Source: Clostridia bacterium (GTDB lineage Bacteria; Bacillota; Clostridia; Acetivibrionales; DTU013). From it: a stretch of 64,000 nucleotides of DNA. The notes beneath the pieces are model-generated. The model searched no databases. It saw nothing but the letters and a program-made list of their open reading frames with translations, and was not told where the DNA came from. The stretch is from positions 34,378-98,377 of the forward strand of contig DATALQ010000018.1 of NCBI GenBank assembly GCA_036260935.1, given 5' to 3'. The position numbers and the translations under genes were made by a program. Shown piece by piece: positions 4,467-59,819 of this stretch. Numbering within the stretch: the stretch's first letter is position 1; each line of letters starts with the position of its first letter.

Positions 4467-4943
4467 ATGCATAAAAATATACCTGATATTTATAGCTCTT
4501 TACAGCAAATTGCCTGGCTATTTGGAGGCCATGGGATTAACGGAGAATGCTGCGGAGATCTGTCATTCGTTGATTTCATAGCCCTTAAAAAGGTTTATGA
4601 GAACACTGCAATAACCATACAAGGGATAGGTAATGCCTTGAACTTTACCAAGAGCGGAGCAACGAGGATCATAAACCGGCTGGAGATTAAGGGTTACGTA
4701 ACGCGGGAAAATTCGCCTGAAGACGGAAGAGTCTGCTGTGTAATGATTACTGAAAAAGGGGTAACTGTAGTTTCAAAAATCATTAAGAACTATACTGAAT
4801 ACTTGCATGAAACTCTGAAAAACTTGGACACAGAAGCTGTGGAGCAAGTTAAAAAAGTATTGGATACATTGTTAGCTGAATTAAATAAAAACAAACAATG
4901 CATCTCGGATCCATTAACAGTATTGGAAGGGGAATGTATTTGA
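4467..4943 (+). CDS. MarR-family transcriptional regulator with vicinal cysteine pairs
   Basis: 158 aa. wHTH region NALNFTKSGATRIINRLEIKGYVTRENSPEDGR. Cys pairs at GECCGD and RVCCVM plus two C-terminal Cys. The stop overlaps the next gene's start by 10 nt. Confidence 0.8.
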   Translation: MHKNIPDIYSSLQQIAWLFGGHGINGECCGDLSFVDFIALKKVYENTAITIQGIGNALNFTKSGATRIINRLEIKGYVTRENSPEDGRVCCVMITEKGVTVVSKIIKNYTEYLHETLKNLDTEAVEQVKKVLDTLLAELNKNKQCISDPLTVLEGECI

Positions 4944-29121: not shown

Positions 29122-29143
29122 TCAATCATAAAGGAGTTCATAA

Positions 29144-30928: not shown

Positions 30929-30941
30929 TAGAGGAGCGGCA

Positions 30942-32561: not shown

Positions 32562-32642
32562 TATGAGTTTTTTAGGTAGCGTTTCTTTATTTTAGCAAAT
32601 TGTTTTATATGCCTCCGAATCTATAATTTAATCAGATGTGTT

Positions 32643-32656
32643 CCGTTGCGCAACGG
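32643..32656 (+). promoter_or_regulatory. Perfect 14-bp palindrome CCGTTGCGCAACGG in the 5' leader of the binding-protein gene
   Basis: Lies about 16 nt downstream of a TATAAT box (32622-32627, with only a weak -35 TTGTTT) and 30 nt before ATG 32687. Confidence 0.4.
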
Positions 32657-32686
32657 CCAGCTGATTATTTAAAGGAGGGGCAAATA

Positions 32687-42350: not shown

Positions 42351-42417
42351 AAACAAACCTCCCTTTAATAATATGATGTTTCTTACAATCAACAACGAAG
42401 TGCTACTTCATTGTTCA

Positions 42418-43362
42418 TTATCCTTTTACAGCCCCGATCATGATACCTTTTACGAAGAATCTCTGGAAGATCGGGTATACCAGTATGATCGGCGTTACGA
42501 CGAGGACTGTTACCGTCATACGGATTGAGGTGGCTGTCTGCGCTTTCGCAAGACTTGCTGCAATGTTGACCGTACCCGAAGCGTTATTAATCAAGCCTTT
42601 CAAAGAGCTTGCCTGATTGATGTACTGGTATAGCACAAACTGCAATGTAAACAGTTTGTTGTCAGTTACCAGAAGCAGAGTGTCCTGGAAGGAATTCCAC
42701 TGTGCAACTGCCGCGAATATCGCAATTGTCGCAAGAATCGGCTTGACGATCGGCAGAATGACGCGGAAAAAAATCTTGAGCGTACCGGCGCCGTCAATCT
42801 CCGCCGCTTCCTGCAGTTCCTTCGGAGTGGATTCTACAAAGGTTTTACACAGCACGATATAGAAAGGCTGAATAACTACTGGCCAGATATAGCCCCAGAA
42901 ATTATTCGTAAGCCCGAGATTTTTCATGGTAATATACCATGGAATTATACCGGCGTTGAAATACATTGTCGCTATTACGAAGCGATACCAGAATTTTCTG
43001 TGCCACAGACTTTCCCGCGTAAACATGTACCCCAGAAAGGCTGCGAACAATACTGTAAGGGCCGTTCCTATCACTGTTCTTTCTACAGAAACCGTAAGTG
43101 CATTGAACAGATCCGGTATTTTCAGTACGTTTGCATAGTTGCTGAAATGTATTCCCAGCGGCCAAAACAGTACTTTACCTTTGTCACTCAGGTCATTCGC
43201 ACTGATTGAATTGATAAAGATATAATAAAACGGGTAGATGCATACGAAGGAAAACAGTGCGTATACAACATAGGTAACTATGCTTATGAGCCTGTCGCCT
43301 ATGCCGTATTTCATTTTCAATTTTGTTGTTTTGGGCTTTTCAGTACTTATATGTAATTCCAT
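42418..43362 (-). CDS. Carbohydrate ABC transporter permease (LplC-like)
   Basis: 314 aa. EAA loop (EAAEIDGAGTLKIFFRVILPIVKP). Confidence 0.85.
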   Translation of the reverse strand: MELHISTEKPKTTKLKMKYGIGDRLISIVTYVVYALFSFVCIYPFYYIFINSISANDLSDKGKVLFWPLGIHFSNYANVLKIPDLFNALTVSVERTVIGTALTVLFAAFLGYMFTRESLWHRKFWYRFVIATMYFNAGIIPWYITMKNLGLTNNFWGYIWPVVIQPFYIVLCKTFVESTPKELQEAAEIDGAGTLKIFFRVILPIVKPILATIAIFAAVAQWNSFQDTLLLVTDNKLFTLQFVLYQYINQASSLKGLINNASGTVNIAASLAKAQTATSIRMTVTVLVVTPIILVYPIFQRFFVKGIMIGAVKG

Positions 43363-43389
43363 AACATTTCCCCCTTCCCTCTCTATAGT

Positions 43390-44310
43390 CTAAATAAAGC
43401 CCTGGCCTCTTACCAACTTCGATACACCATTCGTGACACACAGGAGTATGACACTGATGATGCTCTTGAACATGCTGACTGCGACGGAAAGGGAATAGCC
43501 TCCGTTACCCATTGCCAGATTGTAGACATAAAGGTCAAGAACCTGTATATAGTCCTTATTGAATGCGTTCTGGAAGACATAGAACTGTTCCATGCCATTG
43601 GTCAGGAAGTTCGCCAGATTGAGCATTACTATTACGAAATAGGTTGGCAGCAGGCTCGGAAGCGTAATGTGCCATATTATCTTCATTCTCGAAGCGCCAT
43701 CTATCTTTGCTGCCGTAATCATTTCCTCATCTATGCCTGATATGGCCGCGATATACATGATAGCGGCCCAGCCTGCATTTTTCCATGTCAGCCACAGCCA
43801 CATCTTGAACCAGACATGGTCGGGTGACGCCAAAAATATCTGTGGTTCCTGTATAAGTCCCAGGTTCATTGCCACTGTATTGACAGCACCGGTGCTGCTG
43901 AAAACAGAAAAAGCGATTGAATACACGAGGACCCAGCTGATGAAGTTCGGAAGCGTGGTTACTGTCTGCACGAACCTTTTATAAGTCCTGGCCTTGATCT
44001 CATTAAGGAATACGGCAAAGACCATGGGGAACCATGAAAAAGCAAGGCTCAGCCCGCTGATTGCAAAAGTGTTTCTCATAACTTCCAGGAGTTGATTTAT
44101 CCTGACCTTGTTCGATACCATCGTCTGGAACCATTTTAATCCGACAAACTTTTCCCAGGTCAGAGGAAATGGAGGTTTGTAATCGAAAAATGCATAGAAC
44201 CAACCATAAAGCGGGTAGTACGCAAACAGTGCTACAATTGCCAGGAAAGGCAGTATGTACAGGAATTCCCGATACGATCTGGCCTTTGCCCTGTCCTTAA
44301 TCAACTTCAT
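43390..44310 (-). CDS. Sugar ABC transporter permease (LplB-like)
   Basis: 306 aa. EAA loop (TAAKIDGASRMKIIWHITLPSL). Confidence 0.85.
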   Translation of the reverse strand: MKLIKDRAKARSYREFLYILPFLAIVALFAYYPLYGWFYAFFDYKPPFPLTWEKFVGLKWFQTMVSNKVRINQLLEVMRNTFAISGLSLAFSWFPMVFAVFLNEIKARTYKRFVQTVTTLPNFISWVLVYSIAFSVFSSTGAVNTVAMNLGLIQEPQIFLASPDHVWFKMWLWLTWKNAGWAAIMYIAAISGIDEEMITAAKIDGASRMKIIWHITLPSLLPTYFVIVMLNLANFLTNGMEQFYVFQNAFNKDYIQVLDLYVYNLAMGNGGYSLSVAVSMFKSIISVILLCVTNGVSKLVRGQGFI

Positions 44311-44414
44311 CCAAATAGCCCCCCTACTCGTTATGAAATCAAATCAAATCAAGCGAAATTATTAAGTCTGATAATACTAATAGAAAGTGCAGGTTCCTTA
44401 TAGAATTTCTTTGG

Positions 44415-44467
44415 TTAATCGTTTTACCTTATATGGTAATTATATTCACACGGTTTGTGAATGTCAA
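44415..44467 (-). promoter_or_regulatory. Consensus promoter of ABC operon 2 with downstream operator GTAAAACGATTAA
   Basis: On the minus strand: TTGACA (44467-44462), 17 nt, TATAAT (44444-44439), then GGTAAAACGATTAACC (core 44427-44415) 11 nt after the -10. Confidence 0.65.
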
Positions 44468-44630
44468 CCTCGGGAGGAAATTTGTACAAAAATTTAAATA
44501 ATTAATCTTAAATTTAAAGTCGTTATTTGTATGAATCATGCAGGCTAATATTCCATTCAGGGCTTCCGCTGTCGGCTGCATATTCGACTTATATGAATTG
44601 AGTAATGAAAAGAGAACAGAAGTTGCCGGA

Positions 44631-45668
44631 TTAAATCTGTCTGACGGAATTGCGTTTGATTATCCGGCACGGTATTTTGATGATTCCAGAGGTGCTGCCT
44701 TCGTTGCCTTCAGCCAATGAACCTATCATTATTTCCGCAGATCTCGTGCCTATTTCAATTAAAGGAATCTCGTTTGTAGTAAGCGCAGGTCTTAAATATG
44801 CCGAGACCTCCTTGTTATCATACCCTGCGACGGATATATCCACCCCGGCCTTCATACCGTGCTCCTCCAGATAGTCGTAAACGCCTGCGGCCATTGTATC
44901 GTTCATGCAAAAAATAGCCGTGACGCCTTGCTTGATGATTCTTTCAACTTCCTGGCAGCCTGATTGCCTTTCCCAGTCGCCATATCCGATCAAATCGGGG
45001 TTGTATGGTATCTGATACTCGCGCAATGCCTTTTGATATCCCAGCTTCCTTTTCTGAGTATGCAAATTATCGGCTGTACCGCCAATCACGCCTATCCTGC
45101 GGTGACCCATCGAGATCAGGTGCCGTGTCATATCATATCCGCCCTTCTCATCATCTATAACGACGGAGGTGAATTTAGGCGATTTTGAATAGGAGTAAAC
45201 CACCATGGCCGGTATCTTGAAATCGTCGGGGAAACAATTGATGATCCTGGCGTGTCCCGCAACATACATAATTCCGTCCACTTTGATGGACAGCAGCTCC
45301 TGAATGGCGGGATTCAGTACGGATCTGAATTTTTTTTCGTCATGAAACCAGGTGTTTTTCCACCTGTCATAAAGGCGCATGTTGATCAGAATCGTCCTGT
45401 AATTCATATCTTCACAGCGAGCTATGATCCGTTCAATAATGGGCGGGGAACTAAATTGGCTCAGATCTTCCGTGAGGATGCCGATAATGTTGGTCCTTTG
45501 TTTTCTCATGCCCTGCGCAAAATAGTTGGGCTGGTATCCCGTCTGCTTCACAACCTCGAGAACCCTCTGTCTTGTAGCCTCGCTGACTTTATTCTTGCCA
45601 TTCAATATATTTGATATGGTTGAAGCGGAGACGCCGCACATCTGAGCAATTTCCTTCAGAGTAATCAA
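44631..45668 (-). CDS. LacI-family transcriptional regulator (LacI-2)
   Basis: 345 aa, TTG start. HTH ITLKEIAQMCGVSASTISNILNG plus a sugar-binding domain. Confidence 0.85.
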   Translation of the reverse strand: MITLKEIAQMCGVSASTISNILNGKNKVSEATRQRVLEVVKQTGYQPNYFAQGMRKQRTNIIGILTEDLSQFSSPPIIERIIARCEDMNYRTILINMRLYDRWKNTWFHDEKKFRSVLNPAIQELLSIKVDGIMYVAGHARIINCFPDDFKIPAMVVYSYSKSPKFTSVVIDDEKGGYDMTRHLISMGHRRIGVIGGTADNLHTQKRKLGYQKALREYQIPYNPDLIGYGDWERQSGCQEVERIIKQGVTAIFCMNDTMAAGVYDYLEEHGMKAGVDISVAGYDNKEVSAYLRPALTTNEIPLIEIGTRSAEIMIGSLAEGNEGSTSGIIKIPCRIIKRNSVRQI

Positions 45669-47105: not shown

Positions 47106-47202
47106 AGGCGGTGTACTTGAGATATTGGCATGGTTGCTGTAAAATTAGAATAAATTGCCGCGACGGTTGCTTTAAGCATGGCAAATCAAAGGAGTGGTCG
47201 AA

Positions 47203-47637
47203 ATGGTCGAACTAAAGGCGGAGCATGTGCTGCATATCCATGTACAATGCACGGACGGCCTGCTTGTCGGAGATTCTGTTCAGGGTTCGTTGTGCGTTAT
47301 ACCGATTGCCGGCGGAAATTTCACCGGAAAGGACATCAAAGGCAGGGTCGTGCCCGGCGGTGCCGATTGGAACACCCGTGTATCGGACAAGGTATCCCAT
47401 GTTTTTGCCAAGTATATGATCCAGACGGATGACGGTGAATATATAGCGATCGAGAATGCCGGAATACTCAATGATGCTGACTCAGACAGAGTGATCAAAA
47501 CGTCCCCCAGGTTCACAGCCAGAAAAGGCAGTAAATACGAATGGCTTAACGACGGTATATACGTAGGCTCGCTTGAAGTCTCGAACGATCCTCAATATGC
47601 CATTGCAGTTGATATTAACATATACAGAATGCTTTAA
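47203..47637 (+). CDS. DUF3237 (UPF0311) family protein
   Basis: 144 aa from ATG 47203 (AAAGGAG SD). The pattern IPIAGGNFTG..I.G.V.PGGADW......V.....KY.IQTDDGEYI.IEN.G matches my memory of DUF3237. Confidence 0.55.
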   Translation: MVELKAEHVLHIHVQCTDGLLVGDSVQGSLCVIPIAGGNFTGKDIKGRVVPGGADWNTRVSDKVSHVFAKYMIQTDDGEYIAIENAGILNDADSDRVIKTSPRFTARKGSKYEWLNDGIYVGSLEVSNDPQYAIAVDINIYRML

Positions 47638-47919: not shown

Positions 47920-50031
47920 ATGACAATTATTGAAAAATTCATGAGCTTTATGCACTTTTTCTCGAGGAACACTTCACGCAGCATCCGGACAAAGCTCATT
48001 TCAGCATTCATGATCACCATTATTCCGATACTCCTTTTGGGAATAGTCTCATTCTACTCTTCCAGGAATGCCTTGGAAACTGTTGCAGTTGACAGTTCTC
48101 TATCGACTCTGGCGCAAAGCAACAATTATTTGAAGCTTGCCATGGCAAATGTGGAAGACCTGTCAATGCAAATAATATCAAACACCACATTTCAAAGTTA
48201 TCTGGATTATAACGGAACCGATGATTACGACTATTACGCTCTGCGGAAAGAGGCGGATAATTACCTGAATACGCTGTTGATCTCCAATAAACTTATATCG
48301 AATATTTATTTTATTCAGGATTCAGGTACTATTTTGGGCGACAAAGGCAATTTGAAAACTGAAGGCCTGAGCCTGGAGAAGCTTAAAAAGAATGAGTTTT
48401 ACAAAAGAGTATTTGACAGCAAGGGAAAATCTGAATGGTATGCAAGCCATTCGGATATTGATAAGAATCCTGATGTATCCACCTATTCCATTAGCCTGGT
48501 TCGATTGATCGGCAGTCTTAAAACAAATGAAACCAAAGGCATGCTGGTAATCGACGTTAAGAAGGATGTAGTTCAAAAGCTGATGGAACAGATTTCAATA
48601 GGGAAAAACTCACAAATACATCTGGTCAGCCCGGACGGGGCAGACTTGACCAAAAGCGCTGCCGCAGCCGGAATACCGGCGGGTACTTCGGAGAAAACTT
48701 CCAATATTACCTCGGAAGACTTTTTCCGAGATATTACTGCTTCTGATGAAATCTCAGGCAATAAACAGGTCACGTACAACGGAACTGATAATCTGCTGGA
48801 GTATGCCAAAGTCGGAACAACCGGGTTTATAATGATCGGTTTGATACCCACGGCGGAGCTTTACGCAGCATCGAGCAGGATTATGGTCACTACGATAATT
48901 TTGATAATTCTGGCCATTGCAGTGTCCGTGCTGATAGGGTTCTTCATTTCCACCAGTATGAGTCGTACGATCAACCGGATAATAAAGGTAGCGGGGCAGG
49001 CAGCCTCGGGGGATCTTACCGTCAGCCCACAATCGAACCGCAAGGATGAATTGGGTACTTTAACGATAAGTATCAGTTCAATGATTACAAATATGCGGGC
49101 ACTTATCAGGCAAGCTGCGACTATAGCGTCGTCCGTGGATTCATCGGCATTGACTGTAGCCACCACTTCCCAGCATGTATCCTCCGTATCCCAGGAAATA
49201 TCCAATGCAATACAGGAAATATCGACGGGTGCTTCATCTCAAGCTACGGATGCCGAAAAAGGTTCACAAAAAATGAACGAACTGGCTCAAAAGATCAATA
49301 TCGTATCAGAAAATTCAAGCGCTATAGAAGCTTTTTCAATCGAAACAATGAATCTTACGCAAAAAGGCCTGTCTTCCGTTTCGGAACTGGACGAGAGAAC
49401 TAAGGAAACAACCAATATAACAAGTGCGATTATCGGTGATATTAAATCGCTGGATCACAACTCCAAATCCATAGGAAAGATTATTAAAGTAATAAGCGGT
49501 ATTGCCGATCAGACCAACCTACTGGCTTTGAATGCCGCAATAGAAGCCGCTCGTGCCGGAGAAGCAGGCAGCGGCTTTGCTGTTGTGGCGGATGAAGTGA
49601 GAAAATTGGCGGAACAGTCCATGAACGCCACAAATGATATAGCTTCAATAGTCAAGGATACTCAGAACCAGACTGATAAGGCTGTGAAGAGGGCGGAAAC
49701 GTCAAGCGGCATATTGAAACTCCAGAATGAGTCCCTGCAGAAGACAATAGACATCTTTAGAAGTATTTCAGGTTCAATGGAACAGCTGGCGGGAAAAGTC
49801 GAGAACACCATTGATGCAATTTCCGAGATGGATAGCTATAAAGTACAAACTGTATCCGCCATCGAGAATATCTCCGCTGTTTCGGAACAGACGGCTGCAT
49901 CCTCACAGGAAGTGACTGCATCTACCCAGGAACAGCTTTCCGGCATCGAAGAACTAGCGGCATACGCACAGCAGCTAAACGAAGCGGCGCACGACCTCAC
50001 TGAGGCAATCAGCAAATTCAAAGTCGAGTAG
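47920..50031 (+). CDS. Methyl-accepting chemotaxis protein (dCache-like sensor, HAMP, MA domain)
   Basis: 703 aa. Two TM segments flank a ~280-aa external domain. Invariant signalling hairpin [40 protein letters not shown]. Confidence 0.9.
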
Positions 50032-50048
50032 TGCATAGTACAAAATGC

Positions 50049-50066
50049 GAGTCAATCGATTGACAT
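50049..50066. promoter_or_regulatory. Operator-like palindrome GAGTCAATCGATTGACAT
   Basis: The core GTCAATCGATTGAC (50051-50064) is a perfect 14-bp palindrome with a central CG, 20 nt after the MCP stop. Confidence 0.5.
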
Positions 50067-50128
50067 TGGAAAATGCCTTTTAGAAGTGCTGATACTGCTA
50101 TGTTGCGATGCTAATAACGAGAAAATAT

Positions 50129-50168
50129 ATGTCAAATGGTTGACATTTTATTTGATTTAAAGTAATAT
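50129..50168 (+). promoter_or_regulatory. Promoter of ABC system 3 with overlapping dyad ATGTCAA-ATGG-TTGACAT
   Basis: Dyad at 50129-50146. Its right arm is the -35 TTGACA (50140-50145), followed by 17 nt and TAATAT (50163-50168). Confidence 0.6.
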
Positions 50169-50238: not shown

Positions 50239-51627
50239 ATGAAACGTACACTATTGTCGATGGTCCTTGTTATTATGATGCTTAGCGTTCTGTTAACATC
50301 GTGCGGACAGGCGCCTGACACAACCAAACCGGACTCAAGCGTCTCTGCAAGTTCGACTGACGCATCCACCAACGAGGCAAACGCCGCCAGCGCTACCCCG
50401 GCTGACACTCAGAAGCCTGTAAAAATTACATACTTCAATACGTCGGCTGAAGTTAACACAATGTTTGAAAATATGTTCAAGAAATATCACGAACTATTTC
50501 CAAACGTAACCATCGAGCTGATTCCGACAGCTGTCGGAGAAGGACAGCAGGAGAAGCTGCAGTCTCTGTTCGCAGCAGGAAATGGTCCTACGTTCATGAA
50601 TGTCGATCCGGCCAACGTCATACAGTATCAGGACAAATTGTTCGAGATGACGATGGAGAACGCTCCCTGGCTGGCACAAGCCAGTGACGGTGCGGTAGAG
50701 GGCGGAACCTTCGGCGGCAAGATACTGGGAGCTCCGTGGAGCGTTCAGGGCTATGGCTTGCTGTACAATAAAAGGGTTGTTGACAAGGTCTACGGCGGGG
50801 CATTTGATCCGGCAACGATCAATACAAGAGATTCATTAAAAGCATTCCTTGAGAAAATCGAAGCCTCCGGCGTACCTGCAACCATGCTGCATGGAGCCAA
50901 CTGGTCCATGGGCGGTCACTACCTCACGCTGACCTACGCTGTTCAGGGCCCCAAGACTACCGATGGTACAGGATTTATAGATAAATTAAAAGCAGGAACT
51001 GCAAAGATCGAAGACAGTCCGATTTTCCAAGGCTATATGGATACGATGGACCTGCTTGTTGAACACAATTATAACAAGGCTGATCCTCTGGTAGGAGATT
51101 TCAATAAGGACGTTCAGGCCTTCGGCGAAGGGAAAGCAGCAACTTTCTTCATGGGCGACTGGACATGGACTTCAATGACTACCTTGAAAAATGTAGATCA
51201 GGATTACGGCTTCATTCCGGTGCCGTGGAGCAATAACCCGGCTGATTACGGCAATACGCAGATAGTAATGGTACTGCCGAAATTCCAGTCTATCGATAAG
51301 TCTCAAAACACGCCGGAACAGACAAAGGCCGCGTTGGATGCCTTGGGCTGGATGATGACAGACCCGGCAGGCCAGCAGTTCTTCATTGACGCAGGCTTCT
51401 TCATGCCGTACAAGAATGTAAGAACAGACGTTAAATACAATTCGATGACAACTGCAGTCGCGGACTACGCTAAAAACGGTAAAACCATCAATCTCGGATG
51501 TTTCTCTTACATTTCCGGCGACGCATGGACCCAGACCGGCAATCTGATGCTCAAGTATATTTCCAAAGCTGCTACCAGACAAGAGCTGGCGCAGGGAATA
51601 GACGACTACTGGAAGACTGTAAAGTAA
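50239..51627 (+). CDS. Sugar ABC transporter substrate-binding lipoprotein (CUT1 system 3)
   Basis: 462 aa. Lipobox LLTSC followed by a Ser/Thr/Ala linker. AGGAGG SD. Confidence 0.85.
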   Translation: MKRTLLSMVLVIMMLSVLLTSCGQAPDTTKPDSSVSASSTDASTNEANAASATPADTQKPVKITYFNTSAEVNTMFENMFKKYHELFPNVTIELIPTAVGEGQQEKLQSLFAAGNGPTFMNVDPANVIQYQDKLFEMTMENAPWLAQASDGAVEGGTFGGKILGAPWSVQGYGLLYNKRVVDKVYGGAFDPATINTRDSLKAFLEKIEASGVPATMLHGANWSMGGHYLTLTYAVQGPKTTDGTGFIDKLKAGTAKIEDSPIFQGYMDTMDLLVEHNYNKADPLVGDFNKDVQAFGEGKAATFFMGDWTWTSMTTLKNVDQDYGFIPVPWSNNPADYGNTQIVMVLPKFQSIDKSQNTPEQTKAALDALGWMMTDPAGQQFFIDAGFFMPYKNVRTDVKYNSMTTAVADYAKNGKTINLGCFSYISGDAWTQTGNLMLKYISKAATRQELAQGIDDYWKTVK

Positions 51628-51677: not shown

Positions 51678-51707
51678 TGGTAATCAGGCCCTATGCACAG
51701 GAGAGAT

Positions 51708-52595
51708 ATGATGAAAGCTAAGACAAAGGCACTGAACAATGCAGGACTTTTCGTTATTTTTATGGGTCCTGCACTAATTACGTTTGCTTGCGTGTTGTTG
51801 ATTCCGTTTTTATACGGTGTTTTTCTGACCTTTACCAACTATGATCCGATAAAGGGGACAAAAGATTTTATTGGCTTTGCCAACTTTGCCGCCATTTTTG
51901 CTGATAAGGAGTTTCTTGGCCAGTTTTTGAAGACTCTGAGCTATGTATTCTATTCAACTGTTTTTTGCAATCTCCTGGCGTTTTTATTGGCTTATCTGCT
52001 TACCACCAATATCAAGGCTCAAAACTTTCTGAGAGGCGGGTTCTTCACGCCGAATCTGATCGGAGGAATAATCCTCGGATATATTTGGAAATTCATATTT
52101 GCCAATGTAGTTACGCAGTTGGGAAATTCTTTGGAATTTAAACCGTTGATGACTTCGTTTTTAACTCATCCGGACAGGGCAATCCTCGCTATGATTATAG
52201 TGACCGTGTGGCAATATGCCGGATACCTTATGATGATCTATATAGCCGGGTTCGTCGGAATATCAAGGGATGTTCTGGAGGCTGCCGAAATCGACGGCGC
52301 CACAGGCATGAACAAGCTTTTACATATTACAATTCCTTCAATGGTACCTTCGTTTATTATTTGTCTGTTTATTACCATATCAAGGGGCTTTATGGCGTAC
52401 GACCTGAACCTTGCGCTTACGAACGGCGCTCCGTACGGAGCTACTCGTCTTGCGTCGATGCACATTTATCAGAAAGCGTTCCAGGCAAATCAATATGCCA
52501 CAGGGCAGGCAGAGGCAATCGTGCTTTTCATTGCCGTTGCGATTGCGGCGGTATCACAGGTTCTGCTGACCAAGAAACTTGAGGTGGAAGCATGA
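51708..52595 (+). CDS. Sugar ABC transporter permease
   Basis: About 295 aa. Start at ATG 51708 or 51711, just after AGGAGAG. EAA loop (EAAEIDGATGMNKLLHITIPSM). Confidence 0.85.
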   Translation: MMKAKTKALNNAGLFVIFMGPALITFACVLLIPFLYGVFLTFTNYDPIKGTKDFIGFANFAAIFADKEFLGQFLKTLSYVFYSTVFCNLLAFLLAYLLTTNIKAQNFLRGGFFTPNLIGGIILGYIWKFIFANVVTQLGNSLEFKPLMTSFLTHPDRAILAMIIVTVWQYAGYLMMIYIAGFVGISRDVLEAAEIDGATGMNKLLHITIPSMVPSFIICLFITISRGFMAYDLNLALTNGAPYGATRLASMHIYQKAFQANQYATGQAEAIVLFIAVAIAAVSQVLLTKKLEVEA

Positions 52596-53416
52596 GAAGA
52601 AATAATGTAACAACTTGGGTAAAGTACGTTTTTATTCTGGGTTTGCTCATTCTGTTTATCATACCGTTCTATCTGATGGTGATAAATTCCTTCAAAACGA
52701 CGCAGCAATTTGTCGACAGCCCGTTTTCACTGCCGGATAAAATTGATTTTACCAATTATTTGGACGCCTTTGTAAAAATGAAGTTTCTCAATGGTTTGGC
52801 AAATAGCTTTATTATTACAATCAGCAGTGTTGCCCTGATTATTTTGACCTCTTCGATGGCGGCTTATTTCCTGGTGAGGAATAAGTGGAAAATAAACAAG
52901 ATAATATTCGCGGTATTGGTCGCTTCCATGATAGTTCCTTTTCAAGCCATAATGATACCGCTTGTAAGTATTTACGGCAATATGCAGCTGCTGAACAGCA
53001 AGTGGATTCTGGTATTCATGTACATGGGATTCGGCCAGGCTTTTGCCATATTCATCTTCCACGGTTTCATCAAGAACATACCGTTGGAAATGGAGGAAGC
53101 GGTGCTGATCGACGGCGGAAACAAGCTGCAGTCATTCTTCAGGGTCGTATTTCCTCTGCTGACCCCCGTAGTTGTAACAGTTTTGATACTTGACGTGCTG
53201 TGGATCTGGAATGATTACCTGCTTCCGAGTCTTGTACTGCTTTCCCCGACGCAGCGTACGCTGCCGCTTTCGACGTACAGCTTCTTCCAGTCGTACAGTG
53301 TGGACTATGCGCCGCTTATGGCCGGTATCGTACTGACGATACTGCCCGTACTGATAACGTATATTTTCTGTCAGAAGCAAATCGTCAAAGGGGTCGTTCA
53401 AGGAGCCATCAAATAG
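52592..53416 (+). CDS. Carbohydrate ABC transporter permease
   Basis: 274 aa. 4-nt ATGA overlap with the upstream permease gene. EAA loop (EEAVLIDGGNKLQSFFRVVFPLL). Confidence 0.85.
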   Translation: MRRNNVTTWVKYVFILGLLILFIIPFYLMVINSFKTTQQFVDSPFSLPDKIDFTNYLDAFVKMKFLNGLANSFIITISSVALIILTSSMAAYFLVRNKWKINKIIFAVLVASMIVPFQAIMIPLVSIYGNMQLLNSKWILVFMYMGFGQAFAIFIFHGFIKNIPLEMEEAVLIDGGNKLQSFFRVVFPLLTPVVVTVLILDVLWIWNDYLLPSLVLLSPTQRTLPLSTYSFFQSYSVDYAPLMAGIVLTILPVLITYIFCQKQIVKGVVQGAIK

Positions 53417-53540
53417 CATTCTTCTCGGAAGAAACCGTATATATTTGAAAAATGGAGTATGTAGTCGTTGCATCCTCCATTTTACACATTAAGATGCTTA
53501 ATTCCTTAGTGCTGCTTTAATCGATCGACAACAACCGGAA

Positions 53541-53558
53541 GTGTCATACGGTTGACAC
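53541..53558 (+). promoter_or_regulatory. Operator-like dyad GTGTCAT-ACGG-TTGACAC upstream of the kinase-phosphorylase pair
   Basis: Same arms and spacing as the dyads at 50051 and 50131. The right arm contains TTGACA. An imperfect TTTAATCGATCGAC lies at 53516-53529. Confidence 0.45.
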
Positions 53559-53616
53559 TAACTTCACATACATTCAATTCTTAAAATGCCGGATTAACTT
53601 TTTGTGGGGGATTTGA

Positions 53617-54627
53617 ATGAACAATCACTTATCTGATATAAATAGCCCGATAAAGCTGGGTCACGATAAAAAAATATTGTTGGAGCGCCCCTGGGTCCCC
53701 GAAATAATCGAGAATCCGAATAATATTCCCAAGGGGGACATGCCTGGCGATAAAATTGTGATCAGCCCGGATCATATTAAAAAAGCACATGCGATTTTTC
53801 CGGGATTGCTGGAAATACTTGTGCCGATACTTAACGATAATCAATACCGCCGCGCGGTCGTTGCCGTGTGCGGCGGATCAGGCGTAGGTAAATCCGAGAT
53901 AGCCTCATTGCTGTCCCATTATTTAAACAGTATAGGACTGAACAGCTATACCTTATCCGGTGACAACTATCCTCACAGGATACCCAGGTATAACGATGCC
54001 GAGCGTTTGCGTATTTTCAGGCACAGCGGGATAAGGGGTTTGATTGCTCATGGGGAGTATACGGACGGCAGGCAGACAATCATCAGGGAACTTCAAAAAA
54101 GCGGCAGGGACGCCGATCAGGATTATACTAAAATATACCACTGGCTTTCCATATACCAGAGTGCCGGCCGCTGCGGTTTGAAGAACTATTTGGGTACGCC
54201 CGCGGAAATAGACTTTGACGAGCTTACGGGAATAATTACGCAATTCAAAAACGGCCGGTCACAGATACTTCTCAAGCGGATGGGACGGGAGGAAACGGAG
54301 TTCTGGTATGAATCAGTTGACTTCAGTGACGGGAATGTTTTGTTGATCGAGTGGACCCATGGGAACAATCACAACCTTTTCGGCGTAGATATTCCTATTT
54401 TGCTTAACAGCACGCCGCAAGAGACCCTTGAACATCGCAAATCCCGAAACAGAGACGGCAACGCCGACAGTCCGTTTACAACCATGGTCCTTGAACTCGA
54501 GCAGGATATACTTTTTACTCAGGCATCAAGAGCAAAGCTGATAGTGTCGAAGAACGGCGAAATACTGACTTTCAGAGACTATGCCGGACTTATGATGGAG
54601 AAGCGACAGGAGGCCGGCAATGGATGA
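53617..54627 (+). CDS. P-loop kinase of the uridine-kinase/PRK-like type, substrate unknown
   Basis: 336 aa. Walker A VCGGSGVGKSEIA followed by the LSGDNYPH segment (equivalent to the xSxDDFY of Udk/PRK/GLYK-type kinases). The stop overlaps the next start (ATGGATGA). Confidence 0.6.
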   Translation: MNNHLSDINSPIKLGHDKKILLERPWVPEIIENPNNIPKGDMPGDKIVISPDHIKKAHAIFPGLLEILVPILNDNQYRRAVVAVCGGSGVGKSEIASLLSHYLNSIGLNSYTLSGDNYPHRIPRYNDAERLRIFRHSGIRGLIAHGEYTDGRQTIIRELQKSGRDADQDYTKIYHWLSIYQSAGRCGLKNYLGTPAEIDFDELTGIITQFKNGRSQILLKRMGREETEFWYESVDFSDGNVLLIEWTHGNNHNLFGVDIPILLNSTPQETLEHRKSRNRDGNADSPFTTMVLELEQDILFTQASRAKLIVSKNGEILTFRDYAGLMMEKRQEAGNG

Positions 54628-56362
54628 AGGTGCCATGAAAAAGCAGTCGGATAAAGCTATAAAGTCAGGCCCTATGCTGAACGCCTATCCCGACAGCATC
54701 GGCGGGTCATTGCGCGACATCGTCGAATTTCTTCAACTACCTGAGCTTGACGGTGTATTTCAGTCATTTTATATATTGCCCAGCATATTCAATACCGATT
54801 TGGACCGGGGATTTTCAGTGATAGATTATGAACTGAATGAAATCTATGCTTCCCGTGAAGATTTCGATATCCTGAAGGAGCTTGGAATAGCGCTCAAGCT
54901 TGACTTTGTACTGAACCATTCTTCAGTTTTGTCAAGGCAGTTTCAAGACATATTGAAAAACGGAAATGCTTCAAGGTACAGGGATTTTTTCATTGATTGG
55001 AACAAATTCTGGGAAGGCCGCGGCCCGGTGACAGATGCCGGATACATACAGCCCGAATCAGATTTGCTCAAAAACATGTTTTTCAGGAAACCGGGGCTTC
55101 CCATCCTGAGAGTCCGCATGCCGGACGGGAATGAGGTCCCGTATTGGAATACGTTTTACCAGGAAGTGAAATATGAAAAGGTCGATGCACAGGGCCTGAT
55201 GAAATGTATGGATATACAGTATCTTGCGGCGGAGAGACTGGCAGGCATTATAAACAATGCTCTCGACGCAGGGAAGAAGCCTGCGGAGATGGAATTCGGC
55301 AGGTTCTCAAGATACAGCAAAAAAGTAATCGATATGCTCGAATCGGGGCGTAAATATCTGGGGCAGATGGATCTCAACGTAAAATCACCGTTGGTATGGG
55401 AGTTTTACGAGGAGACGCTGAAAAAATTGTCGCAGTACGGGGCCGAAATAGTAAGGCTCGATGCATTTGCATACGCTTCCAAGGAGCCCGGCGCCAGAAA
55501 TTTCTTCAATGAACCGGAGACCTGGGAGCTGCTTGAACGGATAAAGTCGTTGGCTGACCGATTCGGGCTGACCCTGCTGCCCGAGATACATTCAAGGTAT
55601 GAGGAAAAAATGCATGAGAAGCTTGCCGAAAAAGGCTACCTGACATATGATTTCTTTCTGCCCGGGTTGATAATAGACGCATTGGAAAGGAACTCAAACG
55701 AGTATCTGATCACATGGATCAATGACATACAGGAAAAAAGCATCAGAACCGTCAACATGCTTGGAAGCCATGACGGCATTCCGTTGCTGGATCTTAAGGG
55801 TCTGATACCGGACGGACAGATCGACAACCTGATAAGGACGGTAGTTGACCGGGGCGGTTATATAAAGGATCTGCACGGCAGCAGAAATGTTTATTACCAG
55901 GTAAATGCCACGTATTACAGCGCTTTGGGCGAGGATGACAGGAAACTGCTTCTGGCGAGGGCTATCCAGATGTTTATGCCGGGAAAGCCGCAGGTGTGGT
56001 ATCTTGACCTTTTTGCCGGAAGGAACGACAAGGAAGCCGTAGAAAAAGCGGGTCCAGGAGGACATAAGGAGATTAACAGAACAAACCTTTCTCTGGAGCA
56101 GGCCCGGAGGGGACTGGAAAGTGAAGTGGTTCGAAAGCAGCTCTCCCTGCTGAGATTCAGGAATGCATTCCCTGCATTCGGGTTTGATGCAAAGCTAAGG
56201 ATCCATGCTTCCAAACGACAGGAATTGATACTGTCCTGGGAAAATAACAGCTGTATGGCAAGGCTGGAAGCGGATCTCAAGGAATATTGTTTCCGTATCA
56301 CCGCGGTAAATAAAAAAGGCGAGTCCGTTTTTTTGACCGGTGATGATGATATGAAAATATGA
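54620..56362 (+). CDS. GH13_18 sucrose-phosphorylase-family glycoside phosphorylase (long, YcjM/glucosylglycerate-phosphorylase-like)
   Basis: 580 aa. LNAYPDSIGG start region. GH13 catalytic motifs RLDAFAY (nucleophile), LLPEIH (acid/base) and GSHDGIPLLD. A long insertion follows the third strand. Confidence 0.8.
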   Translation: MDEGAMKKQSDKAIKSGPMLNAYPDSIGGSLRDIVEFLQLPELDGVFQSFYILPSIFNTDLDRGFSVIDYELNEIYASREDFDILKELGIALKLDFVLNHSSVLSRQFQDILKNGNASRYRDFFIDWNKFWEGRGPVTDAGYIQPESDLLKNMFFRKPGLPILRVRMPDGNEVPYWNTFYQEVKYEKVDAQGLMKCMDIQYLAAERLAGIINNALDAGKKPAEMEFGRFSRYSKKVIDMLESGRKYLGQMDLNVKSPLVWEFYEETLKKLSQYGAEIVRLDAFAYASKEPGARNFFNEPETWELLERIKSLADRFGLTLLPEIHSRYEEKMHEKLAEKGYLTYDFFLPGLIIDALERNSNEYLITWINDIQEKSIRTVNMLGSHDGIPLLDLKGLIPDGQIDNLIRTVVDRGGYIKDLHGSRNVYYQVNATYYSALGEDDRKLLLARAIQMFMPGKPQVWYLDLFAGRNDKEAVEKAGPGGHKEINRTNLSLEQARRGLESEVVRKQLSLLRFRNAFPAFGFDAKLRIHASKRQELILSWENNSCMARLEADLKEYCFRITAVNKKGESVFLTGDDDMKI

Positions 56363-56384
56363 GCTAATGAGAAGGGGTAAGACA

Positions 56385-57323
56385 ATGGACTACGGAATAA
56401 ACCGGGAAATCCTTACGGAGATCGTCAGGTCCAGGGGAGTTATCTGGCCTGAGGCAAATCAGCATAAAGCCGACGGTTCGTTTGATCTTGAGAGCAATCA
56501 CAGGACATGGAACTCAGCCATATCACAATTTAAACAGATACAATTATGGGAAGACGGGGCGCCCGGCTATGATAAAAATATCGGCCAGCCCCAGCCCTCG
56601 GTCATTTTTATACCGAGCCCTTCGGGAACAGTGCGCGGCACGGTCATTATTGCGCATGGGGGCGCTTTCATGGCAAGGGCGGGCCATGAGGGGTTTCATG
56701 CAGCTGACTATTTCAACAGAGCAGGGTTTTCGACAGCTGTTCTAACATACAGATTAATACCCTATACACGGTTCGATGCGATCAGAGACATGCAGCGCGC
56801 CATCCGGGTATTGAGATCGAGAGCCGACGAGCTTGGAATATCCGATAAGGTTGCCGTTATGGGTTTCTCGGCAGGAGGCATGCTTGCCGGTAATTGTGCG
56901 ACTCATTTCGACTACGGAAATGAGAGCGCTTCCGATGCGATCGAAAGGAGCTCATGCCGGCCTGATGCTGCAGTCGTCTGTTATGGTGCGTTCAGCAGCG
57001 TCTCTTTCCCCGGTCCTATGTTCGGCAAGGTATTTGGTGATCCTCAAAGGGCAGAACAGGTTTATCTGGCGCCCGAGAAAAACATAACCCCCGAAACACC
57101 GCCCTTTTTCATATGGCAGACAATAAGCGACGACCCGAGACATTCCATGAATCTCGCAAAGGAATTGACAGACGCGGGTGTACCTTTCGAATTGCACTGT
57201 TTTCAGGATGGGACGCACGGTTTGGGCCTTGCTGATGGCGTAAATGATCAGAACGTCAGGATTCCCCACTTGATGCATTGGAGTGAGCTATGTTCGGAAT
57301 GGTTGGAGTCTCAAGGCTTTTAA
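56385..57323 (+). CDS. Alpha/beta-hydrolase (esterase/lipase, HGG type)
   Basis: 312 aa from ATG 56385. HGGAF oxyanion motif, GFSAGG nucleophile elbow, C-terminal DGTHG. Confidence 0.8.
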   Translation: MDYGINREILTEIVRSRGVIWPEANQHKADGSFDLESNHRTWNSAISQFKQIQLWEDGAPGYDKNIGQPQPSVIFIPSPSGTVRGTVIIAHGGAFMARAGHEGFHAADYFNRAGFSTAVLTYRLIPYTRFDAIRDMQRAIRVLRSRADELGISDKVAVMGFSAGGMLAGNCATHFDYGNESASDAIERSSCRPDAAVVCYGAFSSVSFPGPMFGKVFGDPQRAEQVYLAPEKNITPETPPFFIWQTISDDPRHSMNLAKELTDAGVPFELHCFQDGTHGLGLADGVNDQNVRIPHLMHWSELCSEWLESQGF

Positions 57324-57380: not shown

Positions 57381-57413
57381 GAGAGACTCCGGATCCGGAG
57401 TCTCTCCGTTTTT
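57381..57413 (+). terminator. Rho-independent terminator of the kinase-phosphorylase-esterase unit
   Basis: GAGAGACTCCGG-AT-CCGGAGTCTCTC perfect 12-bp stem followed by CGTTTTT. Confidence 0.85.
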
Positions 57414-57479: not shown

Positions 57480-58457
57480 TTAAGTGGTTTCTCTTTTTAT
57501 AAGAGTGACGGGGAAGGTTACGGCCGATGGGATAACTTTGTTTTCGGCCTTGAATACGATGCTTTCAACCGCATACTGGCATATATCGTCCACGGACTGG
57601 TGTATTGTCGTGATTGCCGGGCTGCAGAGAGTACACAGATCGATATCGTCATACCCTACAATTTTTATCTGATCCGGTATTTTGATTCCGCGTTTATTGC
57701 AGATGGCTATTGCCTGTGCGGCGATGATGTCGTTCGACGTGAAAATGCCGTCCACATCGGGGTACTTGTCCAGAAGCACGTCTATAACCGTTTCGTAATG
57801 CATCGATTGGAACTGTTCTTCATTTGCATCGATGACAATCTGCGGTATGCCTTTTCTTTCACAAACCTCTTTGAAACCGAAATAACGCTTGTTTGCATCC
57901 ATGTTGAGATCGGTGCTGCCGCTAATGTGGGCGAGCTTTTTGCAGCCTTTGGATATAAGGTGCTCTGCCGCAAGTACCCCGCCCTGATAGTTATCCGAGC
58001 AGATGGAAGGAATATGCGGCGACAAGATACGGTCAATGGATATGACAGGCGCGTCGATTGCTATATTTTTATCTATATCCTGCGTATGGCTTGCAATAAT
58101 AACGCCGGCTACCTTGTTCGCGCCCAGCATATCAAAGAATTCGATTTCCTTTTTAGGCTCCAGGTTTGACGTACAGAGCAGCAGTTTAAATCCGTGCTTT
58201 GACACGTGATGCTCGATGGAATCTATCACTTTGCAGAAAAACATGTTGCTTGCAGAGGGAACGATTAAACCGATATAGCTGCTCTTTTTCAATGAGAGCG
58301 CGCGCGCAAATTCATTTGGCTGATAATTCAGCTCTTTCATGGCCTGGCGGATCTTTTTACGCGTCTTTTCACTGACGTAACCCCGGTCGTTTAACATCCG
58401 GGATACCGTAGTTACCGTAACCCCGCACTTTTCAGCTACATCCTTCAATGTACTCAT
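57480..58457 (-). CDS. LacI-family transcriptional regulator (LacI-3)
   Basis: 325 aa. HTH STLKDVAEKCGVTVTTVSRMLN plus a sugar-binding domain. Confidence 0.85.
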   Translation of the reverse strand: MSTLKDVAEKCGVTVTTVSRMLNDRGYVSEKTRKKIRQAMKELNYQPNEFARALSLKKSSYIGLIVPSASNMFFCKVIDSIEHHVSKHGFKLLLCTSNLEPKKEIEFFDMLGANKVAGVIIASHTQDIDKNIAIDAPVISIDRILSPHIPSICSDNYQGGVLAAEHLISKGCKKLAHISGSTDLNMDANKRYFGFKEVCERKGIPQIVIDANEEQFQSMHYETVIDVLLDKYPDVDGIFTSNDIIAAQAIAICNKRGIKIPDQIKIVGYDDIDLCTLCSPAITTIHQSVDDICQYAVESIVFKAENKVIPSAVTFPVTLIKRETT

Positions 58458-58510: not shown

Positions 58511-58527
58511 GTGTCAACCCAGTGACC
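58511..58527. promoter_or_regulatory. Degenerate dyad GTGTCAA-CCCA-GTGACC between GT1 and LacI-3
   Basis: Matches TGTCAA-N4-TTGACA in 4/5 positions of the right arm. On the minus strand it reads GGTCAC-TGGG-TTGACAC, upstream of LacI-3. Confidence 0.35.
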
Positions 58528-59819
58528 TATTTTATGACTTGACTGGAATTGGAAAAAGTACTCGTGCTTAAATGTCTTTCAACAATATCTACTGCTTTTT
58601 GTACTCCGTTTTCCAATTCAATTGTTCTACCAAGCTGCCTGGCTTTTGCTTTCATGCTATCATCACTAACGGCAATTTTGATTAAATCAGCTAACTTTTC
58701 CGGTGTTAATTTGCTGTAAGCCGTAGATTTCGGCCCGGCTCCAAGTTCAGATATCCTCTGTGCCCAAAAAGGCTGATCCGCGAAGAAAGGAGCGACTATC
58801 GAAGGTACTCCCGATCGTACCGCCGCCGCAGTAGTGCCTGCTCCGCCATGGTGGACTATGGCAGCCATTCTTTTAAACAACCATGCATGAGGTATTGAGT
58901 CGACCCTTAAAACCGAATCAGGAAGTTTTTCGCTCCCCAAACCATTCCATCCTGAGGATATGATACCACGCTGCCCGCTCAACCTAAGTGCCTCCAATGC
59001 TATCTGTGTAATACGTTCAGGTTCCTTGTCGACCATGCTTCCAAACCCGATATAGACAGGCGGCGCTCCGGAGCTGAGGAAAACTTCAAGATCTTTCGGC
59101 GGCTTCCAGCCTTCAGGTTCATCAAGAAACCAATATCCGGTTATATTTATTGAATCGGGCCAGTCCTCCGGTTTGGGAACAATCGATGGACTGAAGCCGC
59201 AAAGAACAGGAGCCTCACTACTATATATTTTTTTGTATGCGCCCCAAAAGTTTTGCGGTTTCAGACCGAGTATGTCCTTTCGCCAAATATTGAGTTCCTT
59301 TCTTAAGGGTTGCCATGCTATTTGCTCTGTCAATTCATGCGTAAGCTTATTATAAGGAGCCAGGTTAAAAAAGTCAGGGACAAAGGGGGAATGAAATTCC
59401 GATGTGGGACATACCGGAAGGACCATAGTATGAATGCACGGTATTCCAAGCTTTTCCGCACTATCCGACGCACCCATGGCTCCCAATGTAGTTATTATCA
59501 GGTTGCTTCCCTGACAAGCTTCCCAGGTCTCATTAAAAACCCCTTTGATTAAGGGCTCCAATTCTTTAAATACCGTTCTGATAAAGCTTAACTTGTTTTT
59601 ACTTTGGGCTGCGCTTTTCATCTTCAGATTATTGACGAATTCCCGTGGGTTAACACTATTTGTCTGTATATACTCAAGTCCGTTTTCTGTTATGATCTCC
59701 CGAAACTCTTCTGCTGCAGGCATGTGTACTGAAAACCCCGCTTTTCTCAAGCCTGCCCCCAATGCGACGTAAGGCTGCACATCTCCCCGTGAACCTGCTG
59801 TTACTATCGTAATCTTCAT
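58527..59819 (-). CDS. GT1-family (UGT/MGT-like) glycosyltransferase
   Basis: 430 aa. N-terminal TAGSRGDVQPYVALG and C-terminal nucleotide-sugar motif HHGGAGTTAAAVRSGVPSIVAPFFADQPFW. Confidence 0.8.
   Translation of the reverse strand: MKITIVTAGSRGDVQPYVALGAGLRKAGFSVHMPAAEEFREIITENGLEYIQTNSVNPREFVNNLKMKSAAQSKNKLSFIRTVFKELEPLIKGVFNETWEACQGSNLIITTLGAMGASDSAEKLGIPCIHTMVLPVCPTSEFHSPFVPDFFNLAPYNKLTHELTEQIAWQPLRKELNIWRKDILGLKPQNFWGAYKKIYSSEAPVLCGFSPSIVPKPEDWPDSINITGYWFLDEPEGWKPPKDLEVFLSSGAPPVYIGFGSMVDKEPERITQIALEALRLSGQRGIISSGWNGLGSEKLPDSVLRVDSIPHAWLFKRMAAIVHHGGAGTTAAAVRSGVPSIVAPFFADQPFWAQRISELGAGPKSTAYSKLTPEKLADLIKIAVSDDSMKAKARQLGRTIELENGVQKAVDIVERHLSTSTFSNSSQVIK

Follow-up and report, generated by a model that had tools for sequence, protein, structure and literature searches.

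Which sugar is handled by a pair of overlapping genes for a P-loop kinase and a family GH13 phosphorylase, and which of the two enzymes acts on it first? We examined this question for a 64,000-nucleotide stretch of a Clostridia bacterium genome (GenBank assembly GCA_036260935.1, contig DATALQ010000018.1, positions 34,378 to 98,377; the whole stretch is called the window below). The original prediction had suggested that a phosphorylase resembling the glucosylglycerate phosphorylase YcjM splits a glycoside and that the kinase then phosphorylates the released acceptor. Our analysis points to sucrose as the substrate and, most likely, to the reverse order. At a probability of about three in four, the kinase would phosphorylate the intact disaccharide, and the phosphorylase, a sucrose-6F-phosphate phosphorylase (SPP), would then cleave the product.

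The features by which the pair was first recognised all hold up in the sequence, namely the overlapping open reading frames (ORFs), the Walker A motif, the SGDNYP segment and the GH13 motifs. The two genes share 8 nucleotides (nt), ATGGATGA at 54620-54627, in which the start codon of the phosphorylase and the stop codon of the kinase both fall (..AAT GGA TGA in the frame of the kinase, ATG GAT GAA in that of the phosphorylase). A Shine-Dalgarno sequence, AGGAGG at 54608-54613, lies 6 nt 5′ of the phosphorylase ATG.

The kinase is related to the sucrose-kinase domain of AgaSK

The Walker A motif GGSGVGKS (kinase residues 86-93) and the SGDNYP segment (residues 114-119, within TLSGDNYP at 112-119) are nearly invariant in 52 kinase homologues. 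The original prediction had left the kinase without a family, and this agrees with the domain searches: the family has no Pfam model, and the kinase gives only borderline Zeta_toxin and APS_kinase matches that cover the P-loop alone (residues 76-130). Neither name can be adopted. The match to the adenylylsulfate (APS) kinase model TIGR00455 reaches 20.1 bits where 138.7 are required and spans about 47 residues round the P-loop, and the zeta-toxin match is likewise limited to the P-loop and borderline to its threshold.

An exhaustive HMMER search led to P0178, a 933-residue protein that carries the kinase at its C-terminus. The first 720 residues of P0178 match the alpha-galactosidase part of AgaSK (PDB 2YFN) with 1211.7 bits, and residues 78-316 of the window kinase align with its residues 739-931 (BLASTP E 2e-58, 42% identity, or about 52% outside the gap); the kinase part of P0178 also matches PF00485 (PRK). 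By sequence comparison, the window kinase is thus a homologue of the sucrose-kinase (SK) domain of AgaSK and is unlikely to be the glycerate kinase put forward earlier. The isolated SK domain phosphorylates sucrose with a Km of about 1 mM (PMC7688924), and sucrose is probably what the window kinase phosphorylates as well. The kinase differs from the SK domain of AgaSK in an N-terminal extension of about 77 residues that bears a conserved GDMPGD motif and in an additional helical insertion of 42-46 residues; it is encoded as a stand-alone 336-residue ORF and is not fused to a GH36 domain.

The earlier assignment to a PRK/uridine-kinase-like fold is borne out by an AlphaFold (AF2) model with a mean predicted local distance difference test (pLDDT) score of 93.6. 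The top Foldseek matches of this model are pantothenate kinase, the uridine-cytidine kinase UCK2 and 3C8U, a ‘putative fructose transport system kinase’, at 11-16% identity. The top 50 PDB matches include no glycerate kinase, in a comparison that covered folds only.

The kinase subtype had also been called undescribed, which is half right, since AgaSK, the fused form, was characterised in 2011 and 2020 and Clostridium sp. L2-50 has been noted to carry the kinase as a separate gene (PMC7688924). Public names for the family are misleading. An identical protein (P0001) is named ‘adenylylsulfate kinase’ at NCBI, and JGI labels many stand-alone homologues ‘alpha-galactosidase’ despite the absence of a GH36 domain.

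The phosphorylase belongs with sucrose-6F-phosphate phosphorylases

The phosphorylase falls just short of the NCBIfam sucrose phosphorylase model (329 bits, cut-off 334). Its best solved relative is 6S9U (591.5 bits, E 1.5e-176, about 57% identity), followed at a distance by TtSPP (270 bits), glucosylglycerol phosphorylase (208 bits) and the Bifidobacterium sucrose phosphorylase BaSP (187 bits). The 6S9U entry is IcSPP from Ilumatobacter coccineus, a strict sucrose-6F-phosphate phosphorylase in which a YYQ motif in loop A marks a clade that includes RgSPP (PMC6720575); RgSPP and IcSPP both act strictly on sucrose-6F-phosphate and show no activity on sucrose (PMC6521584, PMC6720575). Moreover, the window phosphorylase is 53% identical to the 492-residue GH13 enzyme encoded directly after an AgaSK gene.

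The active site agrees with this placement. Catalytic residues D281 (in RLDAFAY), E322 (LPEIH) and D385 (SHDGI) align with D223, E264 and D327 of IcSPP, the YYQ motif of acceptor loop A is present (Y425-Y426-Q427), and the residues predicted to bind fructose 6-phosphate (F6P), R156, K416, Q427 and K483, correspond to R152, K364, Q378 and K434 of IcSPP. An inspection of the acceptor site, proposed with the original prediction, therefore returns YYQ and F6P-binding residues and not the glucosylglycerate-type Glu. One loop A residue departs from IcSPP: Arg422 stands in place of a Lys (IcSPP K373) that is kept in 67 of 73 kinase-adjacent homologues. We regard this change as conservative, because K373 of IcSPP points away from the active site (PMC6720575). 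The full signature D-R-D-E-D-K-K-Y-Y-Q-K is found in 67 of the 73 kinase-adjacent SPPs. By these comparisons, the phosphorylase is a GH13_18 member of the IcSPP/RgSPP clade of sucrose-6F-phosphate phosphorylases, and sucrose-6F-phosphate is most likely its substrate.

The enzyme is indeed 580 residues long, as had been pointed out, but this length is not a YcjM-like trait. The excess over about 500 residues is a 53-residue insertion at 185-237, which follows domain B and precedes the strand with YLGQMDLN; IcSPP and YcjM lack it. An insertion of about 53 residues occurs in 70 of the 73 kinase-adjacent SPPs and is missing from the 492-residue SPP next to AgaSK as well as from IcSPP. In an AlphaFold model of a natural kinase-SPP fusion (P0126; pLDDT 88, predicted template modelling score 0.73), the insertion forms three confident helices. 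The kinase and SPP insertions mostly occur together: most pairs have both, AgaSK and its SPP have neither, and P0196 has neither. A role of the two insertions in docking, and a physical kinase-SPP complex, are speculation on our part, since the correlation is imperfect (loci L044 and L068 combine the kinase insertion with a short SPP).

Kinase and phosphorylase are near-obligate partners

Kinase relatives were found in at least 550 species genomes, and gene neighbourhoods were drawn from the best 80 loci. In 78 of these 80, the very next gene downstream of the kinase encodes an SPP homologue (53-75% identical). The reverse holds equally: among SPP-anchored metagenome contigs with at least 1 kb of upstream sequence, 68 of 69 carry the kinase. 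The co-occurrence check proposed with the original prediction thus returns a pairing conserved in both directions, and the idea of a conserved, translationally coupled two-step catabolic module stands. Bacillota, Bacteroidota and Actinomycetota are represented among the best 80 loci, together with metagenome-assembled genomes (MAGs) assigned to Alphaproteobacteria, Myxococcales and Gemmatimonadaceae. Isolates, and not only MAGs, encode kinase homologues, among them Herbinix hemicellulosilytica and Anaerocolumna sp.

Junction gaps in the 49 related loci where they could be measured are mostly between -20 and +34 nt, with at least 14 overlaps, and because such gaps recur across these loci, the tight kinase-SPP junction is not due to chance. 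The AgaSK-type locus L082 has the same type of junction as the window, the AgaSK stop and the SPP start sharing 8 nt (ATGGATAA, positions 4726-4733), which suggests that the kinase-SPP junction is ancestral.

Furthermore, the two enzymes are joined in nature. P0126 (868 residues, Propioniciclava soli) joins an N-terminal kinase to an SPP; its alignment with the window SPP runs through the insertion at 60% identity. Its best 120 matches (P0126 and P0271-P0389) are all full-length kinase-SPP fusions of 856-887 residues. Such fusions, found in Propionibacteriaceae and other Actinomycetota and named only ‘sucrose phosphorylase’, make up at least 120 protein clusters. In L083 (9001-11607) and L084 (9001-11595) the fusion gene has neither transporter nor accessory genes near it; the two activities therefore suffice together. 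In a human-gut metagenome group the unfused pair likewise forms a bare bicistron. Given the near-obligate pairing, the fusions, the lone fusion genes and the bare bicistrons, we conclude that kinase plus SPP is the conserved functional unit.

Genes of the GH36 family occur in only 4 of the 80 related loci, and the stand-alone kinase is the dominant form of its family; stand-alone and SPP-fused forms together are spread far more widely than published. In three Actinomycetota MAG loci (L002, L007 and L009) a GH32 gene lies directly upstream of the kinase, within the order LacI, solute-binding protein (SBP), permeases, Abhydrolase_3 esterase, GH32, kinase, SPP. L002 also encodes a second, short SPP paralogue (485 residues) without the insertion.

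A proposed kinase-first route for sucrose

We propose that the ATP-binding cassette (ABC) system encoded upstream imports sucrose or a sucrose conjugate, and that the downstream cytoplasmic esterase probably deacylates an esterified sugar ahead of the kinase step. The kinase would then convert sucrose and ATP to sucrose-6F-phosphate, with the phosphate on the fructosyl 6-OH, and the SPP would use inorganic phosphate (Pi) to split this product into glucose 1-phosphate (G1P) and F6P. The route rests on homology to the SK domain of AgaSK and to IcSPP and RgSPP, on the conservation of the active site and the +1 subsite, on near-obligate two-way adjacency and on natural fusion; which substrate the window pair uses, that the kinase adds the phosphate at the 6F position and what the esterase does are inferred. 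As noted above, we give this kinase-then-phosphorylase route for sucrose about a 75% probability.

Several points weigh against it. The product of AgaSK is given, where PMC7688924 cites Bruel 2011, as sucrose phosphorylated on C6 of the glucose, which would not be the SPP substrate. Previous authors have proposed the uptake of sucrose-6F-phosphate and drawn no direct link between kinase and SPP (PMC6521584, PMC7178133), and because the glucose-C6 product had been reported, the question of where sucrose-6F-phosphate comes from is either left open or answered by uptake, in original papers and reviews alike (PMC6521584, PMC7178133, PMC12703740). In addition, the 53-residue insertion and Arg422 of the SPP and the extension and 42-46-residue insertion of the kinase set the window enzymes apart from the characterised ones, so that their specificity could differ; the enzymes characterised so far are not of the long or stand-alone type. 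Nevertheless, given the fusions and the near-obligate adjacency, a kinase that feeds the SPP is much the likelier case. We infer that either the position of the phosphate in the AgaSK product should be examined again or AgaSK is unlike the stand-alone kinases.

If the published AgaSK regiochemistry, as relayed in PMC7688924, applied here, the kinase could make sucrose-6(Glc)-phosphate for a GH32 hydrolase encoded elsewhere, while the SPP would draw on a separate pool of sucrose-6F-phosphate and the pairing would reflect co-regulation. The three loci with GH32 genes directly upstream of the kinase would fit such an arrangement. We nonetheless consider it unlikely in view of the kinase-SPP fusions in at least 120 protein clusters with GH32 not nearby, the adjacency in both directions, the bare bicistrons of gut metagenomes, and the fact that no natural source of free sucrose-6F-phosphate is known from which it could be taken up (PMC7178133). 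A phosphorylase-first order is also conceivable for sucrose itself, with an ordinary sucrose phosphorylase followed by a novel fructokinase acting on the freed fructose. The net stoichiometry would be the same (sucrose + ATP + Pi -> G1P + F6P + ADP), and 3C8U, one of the Foldseek matches, carries a fructose-related name; among the acceptors that the original prediction had held open (glycerol, fructose or something new), fructose in fact comes closest to the truth. This order is nevertheless quite improbable, given that the closest characterised enzymes, RgSPP and IcSPP, are strict for sucrose-6F-phosphate (PMC6521584, PMC6720575), that the residues binding the phosphate of F6P are kept in the window enzyme, and that the homologous SK domain phosphorylates sucrose (PMC7688924).

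Two further alternatives abandon sucrose. The long-form pair might act on a different alpha-glucoside, with phosphorylation of its aglycone; specificity would have been reshaped by the SPP insertion and the kinase extensions, both specific to the subclade, and the varied esterase context described below also hints at unusual substrates. With all predicted +1-subsite residues of IcSPP invariant in 67 of 73 long-form enzymes, and with GH36 or GH32 genes, whose products free sucrose from raffinose-family sugars or fructans, present in some loci, we find this very improbable. Least credible, and effectively refuted by direct sequence comparison with YcjM of Escherichia coli, is the model from which the analysis started, in which a YcjM-type enzyme frees D-glycerate from glucosylglycerate and a GLYK-like P-loop kinase phosphorylates it. 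The two phosphorylases are both GH13_18 enzymes of similar length (580 and 559 residues), the kinase has a PRK/UCK-like P-loop fold, and a glycerate kinase gene often accompanies glucosylglycerate phosphorylase genes (PMC7178133). However, the window enzyme shares only 25% identity and 111 bits with YcjM, compared with about 57% and 591 bits with IcSPP (6S9U), and has Gln427 where glucosylglycerate phosphorylases, YcjM included, have Glu in loop A (PMC6720575). Its extra length is the insertion that YcjM does not have, its gene neighbourhood is a different one, the kinase is clearly homologous to sucrose kinase, and no gpgS/gpgP-type genes are among the recurring families of the 80 related loci. 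The phosphorylase is accordingly not closer to the YcjM type, as had been supposed.

Esterases are a frequent accessory to the pair

Crude gene calls from the 80 loci and the window (81 in total) were clustered, and the recurrent clusters were annotated. At least nine esterase families occur in kinase-SPP loci: PF00756/CE1-like (26 loci), CE2 (13), a long form of the beta-lactamase fold (9), GDSL (7), the BD-FAE type found in the window (6), type-B carboxylesterase (6), a short form of the beta-lactamase fold (6), Abhydrolase_3 (4) and Abhydrolase_3-GDSL fusions (4). At least one esterase is present in 50 of the 81 loci, and in 26 an esterase directly adjoins the pair on the same strand. Within the same-strand block of the kinase, esterases account for 62 of 276 other genes, compared with 22 of 420 outside it (odds ratio 5.2, Fisher p = 2e-11, for loci that are phylogenetically non-independent). 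Esterases are even fused to the N-terminus of the kinase, in P0123 (PF00756 plus kinase, L085 8001-9719) and P0128 (beta-lactamase fold plus kinase, L086 431-2491). The gene order of L085 is SBP, permease, permease, GDSL esterase, CE1 esterase-kinase fusion, SPP, CE1 esterase, alpha/beta hydrolase. Esterases of Bacillota are without signal peptides; in Bacteroidota, ceramidase-like, carboxylesterase and Abh3-GDSL proteins have them, and a major facilitator superfamily transporter gene follows the SPP gene.

Not every kinase-SPP locus has an esterase: among metagenome loci of 8 kb or more, 14 of 45 do, and none lies round the Propionibacteriaceae fusions and the gut bicistrons. Because the association is frequent but not universal, the esterases are an accessory module outside the kinase-SPP core. 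Their enrichment suggests the catabolism of sucrose esters, and the whole picture fits a modular design: the kinase-SPP back end, which is constant, would process sucrose that varied front ends release from raffinose-type sugars, fructans or acylated sucrose. A bolder version, to which we give somewhat less than even odds, is that the kinase-SPP core is the universal end-module of unrecognised acylated-sucrose loci. In such loci, esterases of unrelated folds, cytoplasmic in Bacillota and secreted in Bacteroidota, would strip the acyl groups, and the kinase would make sucrose-6F-phosphate for the SPP to split; such a product would correct the glucose-6 assignment published for this kinase family. 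Candidate substrates include plant phenylpropanoid or acetyl sucrose esters, acylsugars and sucrose-ester emulsifiers. Among searchable papers, we found none that ties an SPP or a sucrose kinase to esterases or to sucrose-ester catabolism.

Relation to known systems

The window module is not categorically new: it varies the known AgaSK/SPP system by a stand-alone kinase and a long SPP. It shares with the AgaSK and RgSPP locus of Ruminococcus gnavus E1 (PMC6521584; PMC7688924) the homology to the SK domain and the order of kinase then SPP, and with the AgaSK-type locus L082 an SPP of 53% identity, the 8-nt overlap type and the upstream ABC permease context. In contrast to AgaSK/RgSPP, the window kinase is a separate 336-residue protein and not the C-terminal domain of a GH36 enzyme, it has the N-terminal extension, both kinase and SPP have insertions, and the accessory position is held by an esterase and not by an alpha-galactosidase; none was found among the large ORFs of the 64-kb window when we looked for one. 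Compared with IcSPP, the catalytic triad, the YYQ motif and the +1-subsite residues are common to both, whereas the window enzyme has the 53-residue insertion, Arg in place of Lys373 and 580 residues against 531.

The locus of Clostridium sp. L2-50 also has a sucrose-kinase homologue as its own gene beside an spp gene (PMC6521584, PMC7688924), but it retains GH36 and was treated as a rare variant. In Thermoanaerobacterium thermosaccharolyticum, the gene for TtSPP is clustered with a PfkB-type kinase gene (PMC6521584, PMC12703740); this locus differs from the window in both partners, TtSPP belonging to another SPP clade (270 bits, different +1 residues) and the kinase, a putative phosphofructokinase, having an unrelated fold.

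Three elements appear to be unreported in searchable papers: the dominance and spread of the stand-alone and fused forms, the genetic case for the kinase as the supplier of sucrose-6F-phosphate, and the association with esterases. Our results assign a likely function to a widespread gene pair currently labelled adenylylsulfate kinase, alpha-galactosidase or hypothetical, and to fusions labelled sucrose phosphorylase. They bear on a gap in the GH13_18 literature, the source of sucrose-6F-phosphate (PMC7178133, PMC6521584, PMC12703740), for which we argue that the kinase itself is the supplier. Published work confines the kinase/SPP cluster to a few gut Firmicutes; this is contradicted by the species genomes, at least 550, that carry the kinase and by the origin of the best 80 loci from several phyla. 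The esterase enrichment points to an undescribed route of sucrose-ester degradation, and biocatalysis may profit from a fusion that makes G1P and F6P out of sucrose, ATP and Pi in one enzyme.

Organisation of the locus

The pair lies in an apparent six-gene operon in the order SBP, permease, permease, kinase, phosphorylase, esterase (Table 1), and the adjoining upstream ABC importer of the original prediction is present. The esterase gene starts 4 nt past the phosphorylase stop.

Table 1 Features of the kinase-SPP locus, in positions of the window
Feature	Position	Strand	Basis or remark
DUF3237 gene, 5′ of the operon	47194..47637	+	family also in kinase-SPP loci
Promoter-like site TTGACA-17-TAATAT, 5′ of the SBP gene	50140..50168	+	consensus match only
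Lipoprotein-type SBP of a CUT1-type sugar ABC importer	50239..51627	+	weak MalE match
ABC permease 1	51693..52595	+	PF00528
ABC permease 2	52592..53416	+	PF00528
Possible operator, perfect palindrome AGTGTCA-N6-TGACACT, in the 200 nt that separate the permease 2 and kinase genes	53540..53559		sequence
Stand-alone sucrose-kinase-type P-loop kinase, 336 residues, ATG start	53617..54627	+	sequence homology, AF2 model
Kinase Walker A	53872-53895	+	GGSGVGKS
Kinase SGDNYP motif	53956-53973	+	sequence
GH13_18 phosphorylase, IcSPP/RgSPP clade, long form, 580 residues, ATG start	54620..56362	+	sequence comparison
Phosphorylase insertion, 53 residues (185-237)	55172..55330	+	alignment
Alpha/beta-hydrolase esterase (BD-FAE/Abhydrolase_3, PaeX-like), cytoplasmic, last operon gene	56367..57323	+	domain matches
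Strong intrinsic-terminator-like hairpin, 11-bp stem then T run, operon end	57381..57406	+	sequence
LacI-family regulator, convergent to the operon	57480..58457	-	domain match

The best solved relative of the SBP is 9XOR (1.6e-35); 2HEU, 2I58 and 6PQL, which we take to be entries for the raffinose-binding protein RafE, follow at about 6e-9. SBP homologues are present in 21 of the 80 kinase loci and homologues of the LacI-family regulator in 33. In addition to the perfect palindrome before the kinase gene, imperfect TGTCA/TGACA-type palindromes lie 5′ of the SBP gene at 50048-50067 and 50128-50147, and the latter, which resembles TGTCA-N6-TGACA, overlaps the -35 element of the promoter-like site. 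These palindromes could be a candidate operator for the adjoining LacI regulator; their count is not significant on its own, with at least four matches in 12 of 100 shuffles of the sequence. Within the kinase and SPP genes, long ORFs also run antisense (55915-56385, 55694-56065 and 53953-54243, all on the minus strand); they belong to no family that recurs in the related loci and appear spurious.

Two gene families of the neighbourhoods have, to our knowledge, no role in sugar catabolism. The DUF3237 family recurs in 11 kinase-SPP loci, the window included (also L012, L014, L023, L047 and L053), and a tie between this gene and the kinase-SPP module is possible; NIF3/DUF34 genes recur in 19 related loci.

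Directly 5′ of the sugar operon, a methyl-accepting chemotaxis protein with a dCache sensor domain (47920-50031, plus strand) may sense the same substrate as the operon serves. A GT1-family glycosyltransferase (EryCIII/UDP-glycosyltransferase-like; 58527-59819, minus strand) adjoins the LacI regulator. A second sugar-uptake cluster on the opposite strand (40557-45668, minus) encodes a 612-residue protein without a Pfam match, possibly an SBP, two permease-like ORFs (42418-44310) and its own LacI regulator (44631-45668), and two-component/AraC sugar sensors with a further SBP are encoded at 27553-34414.

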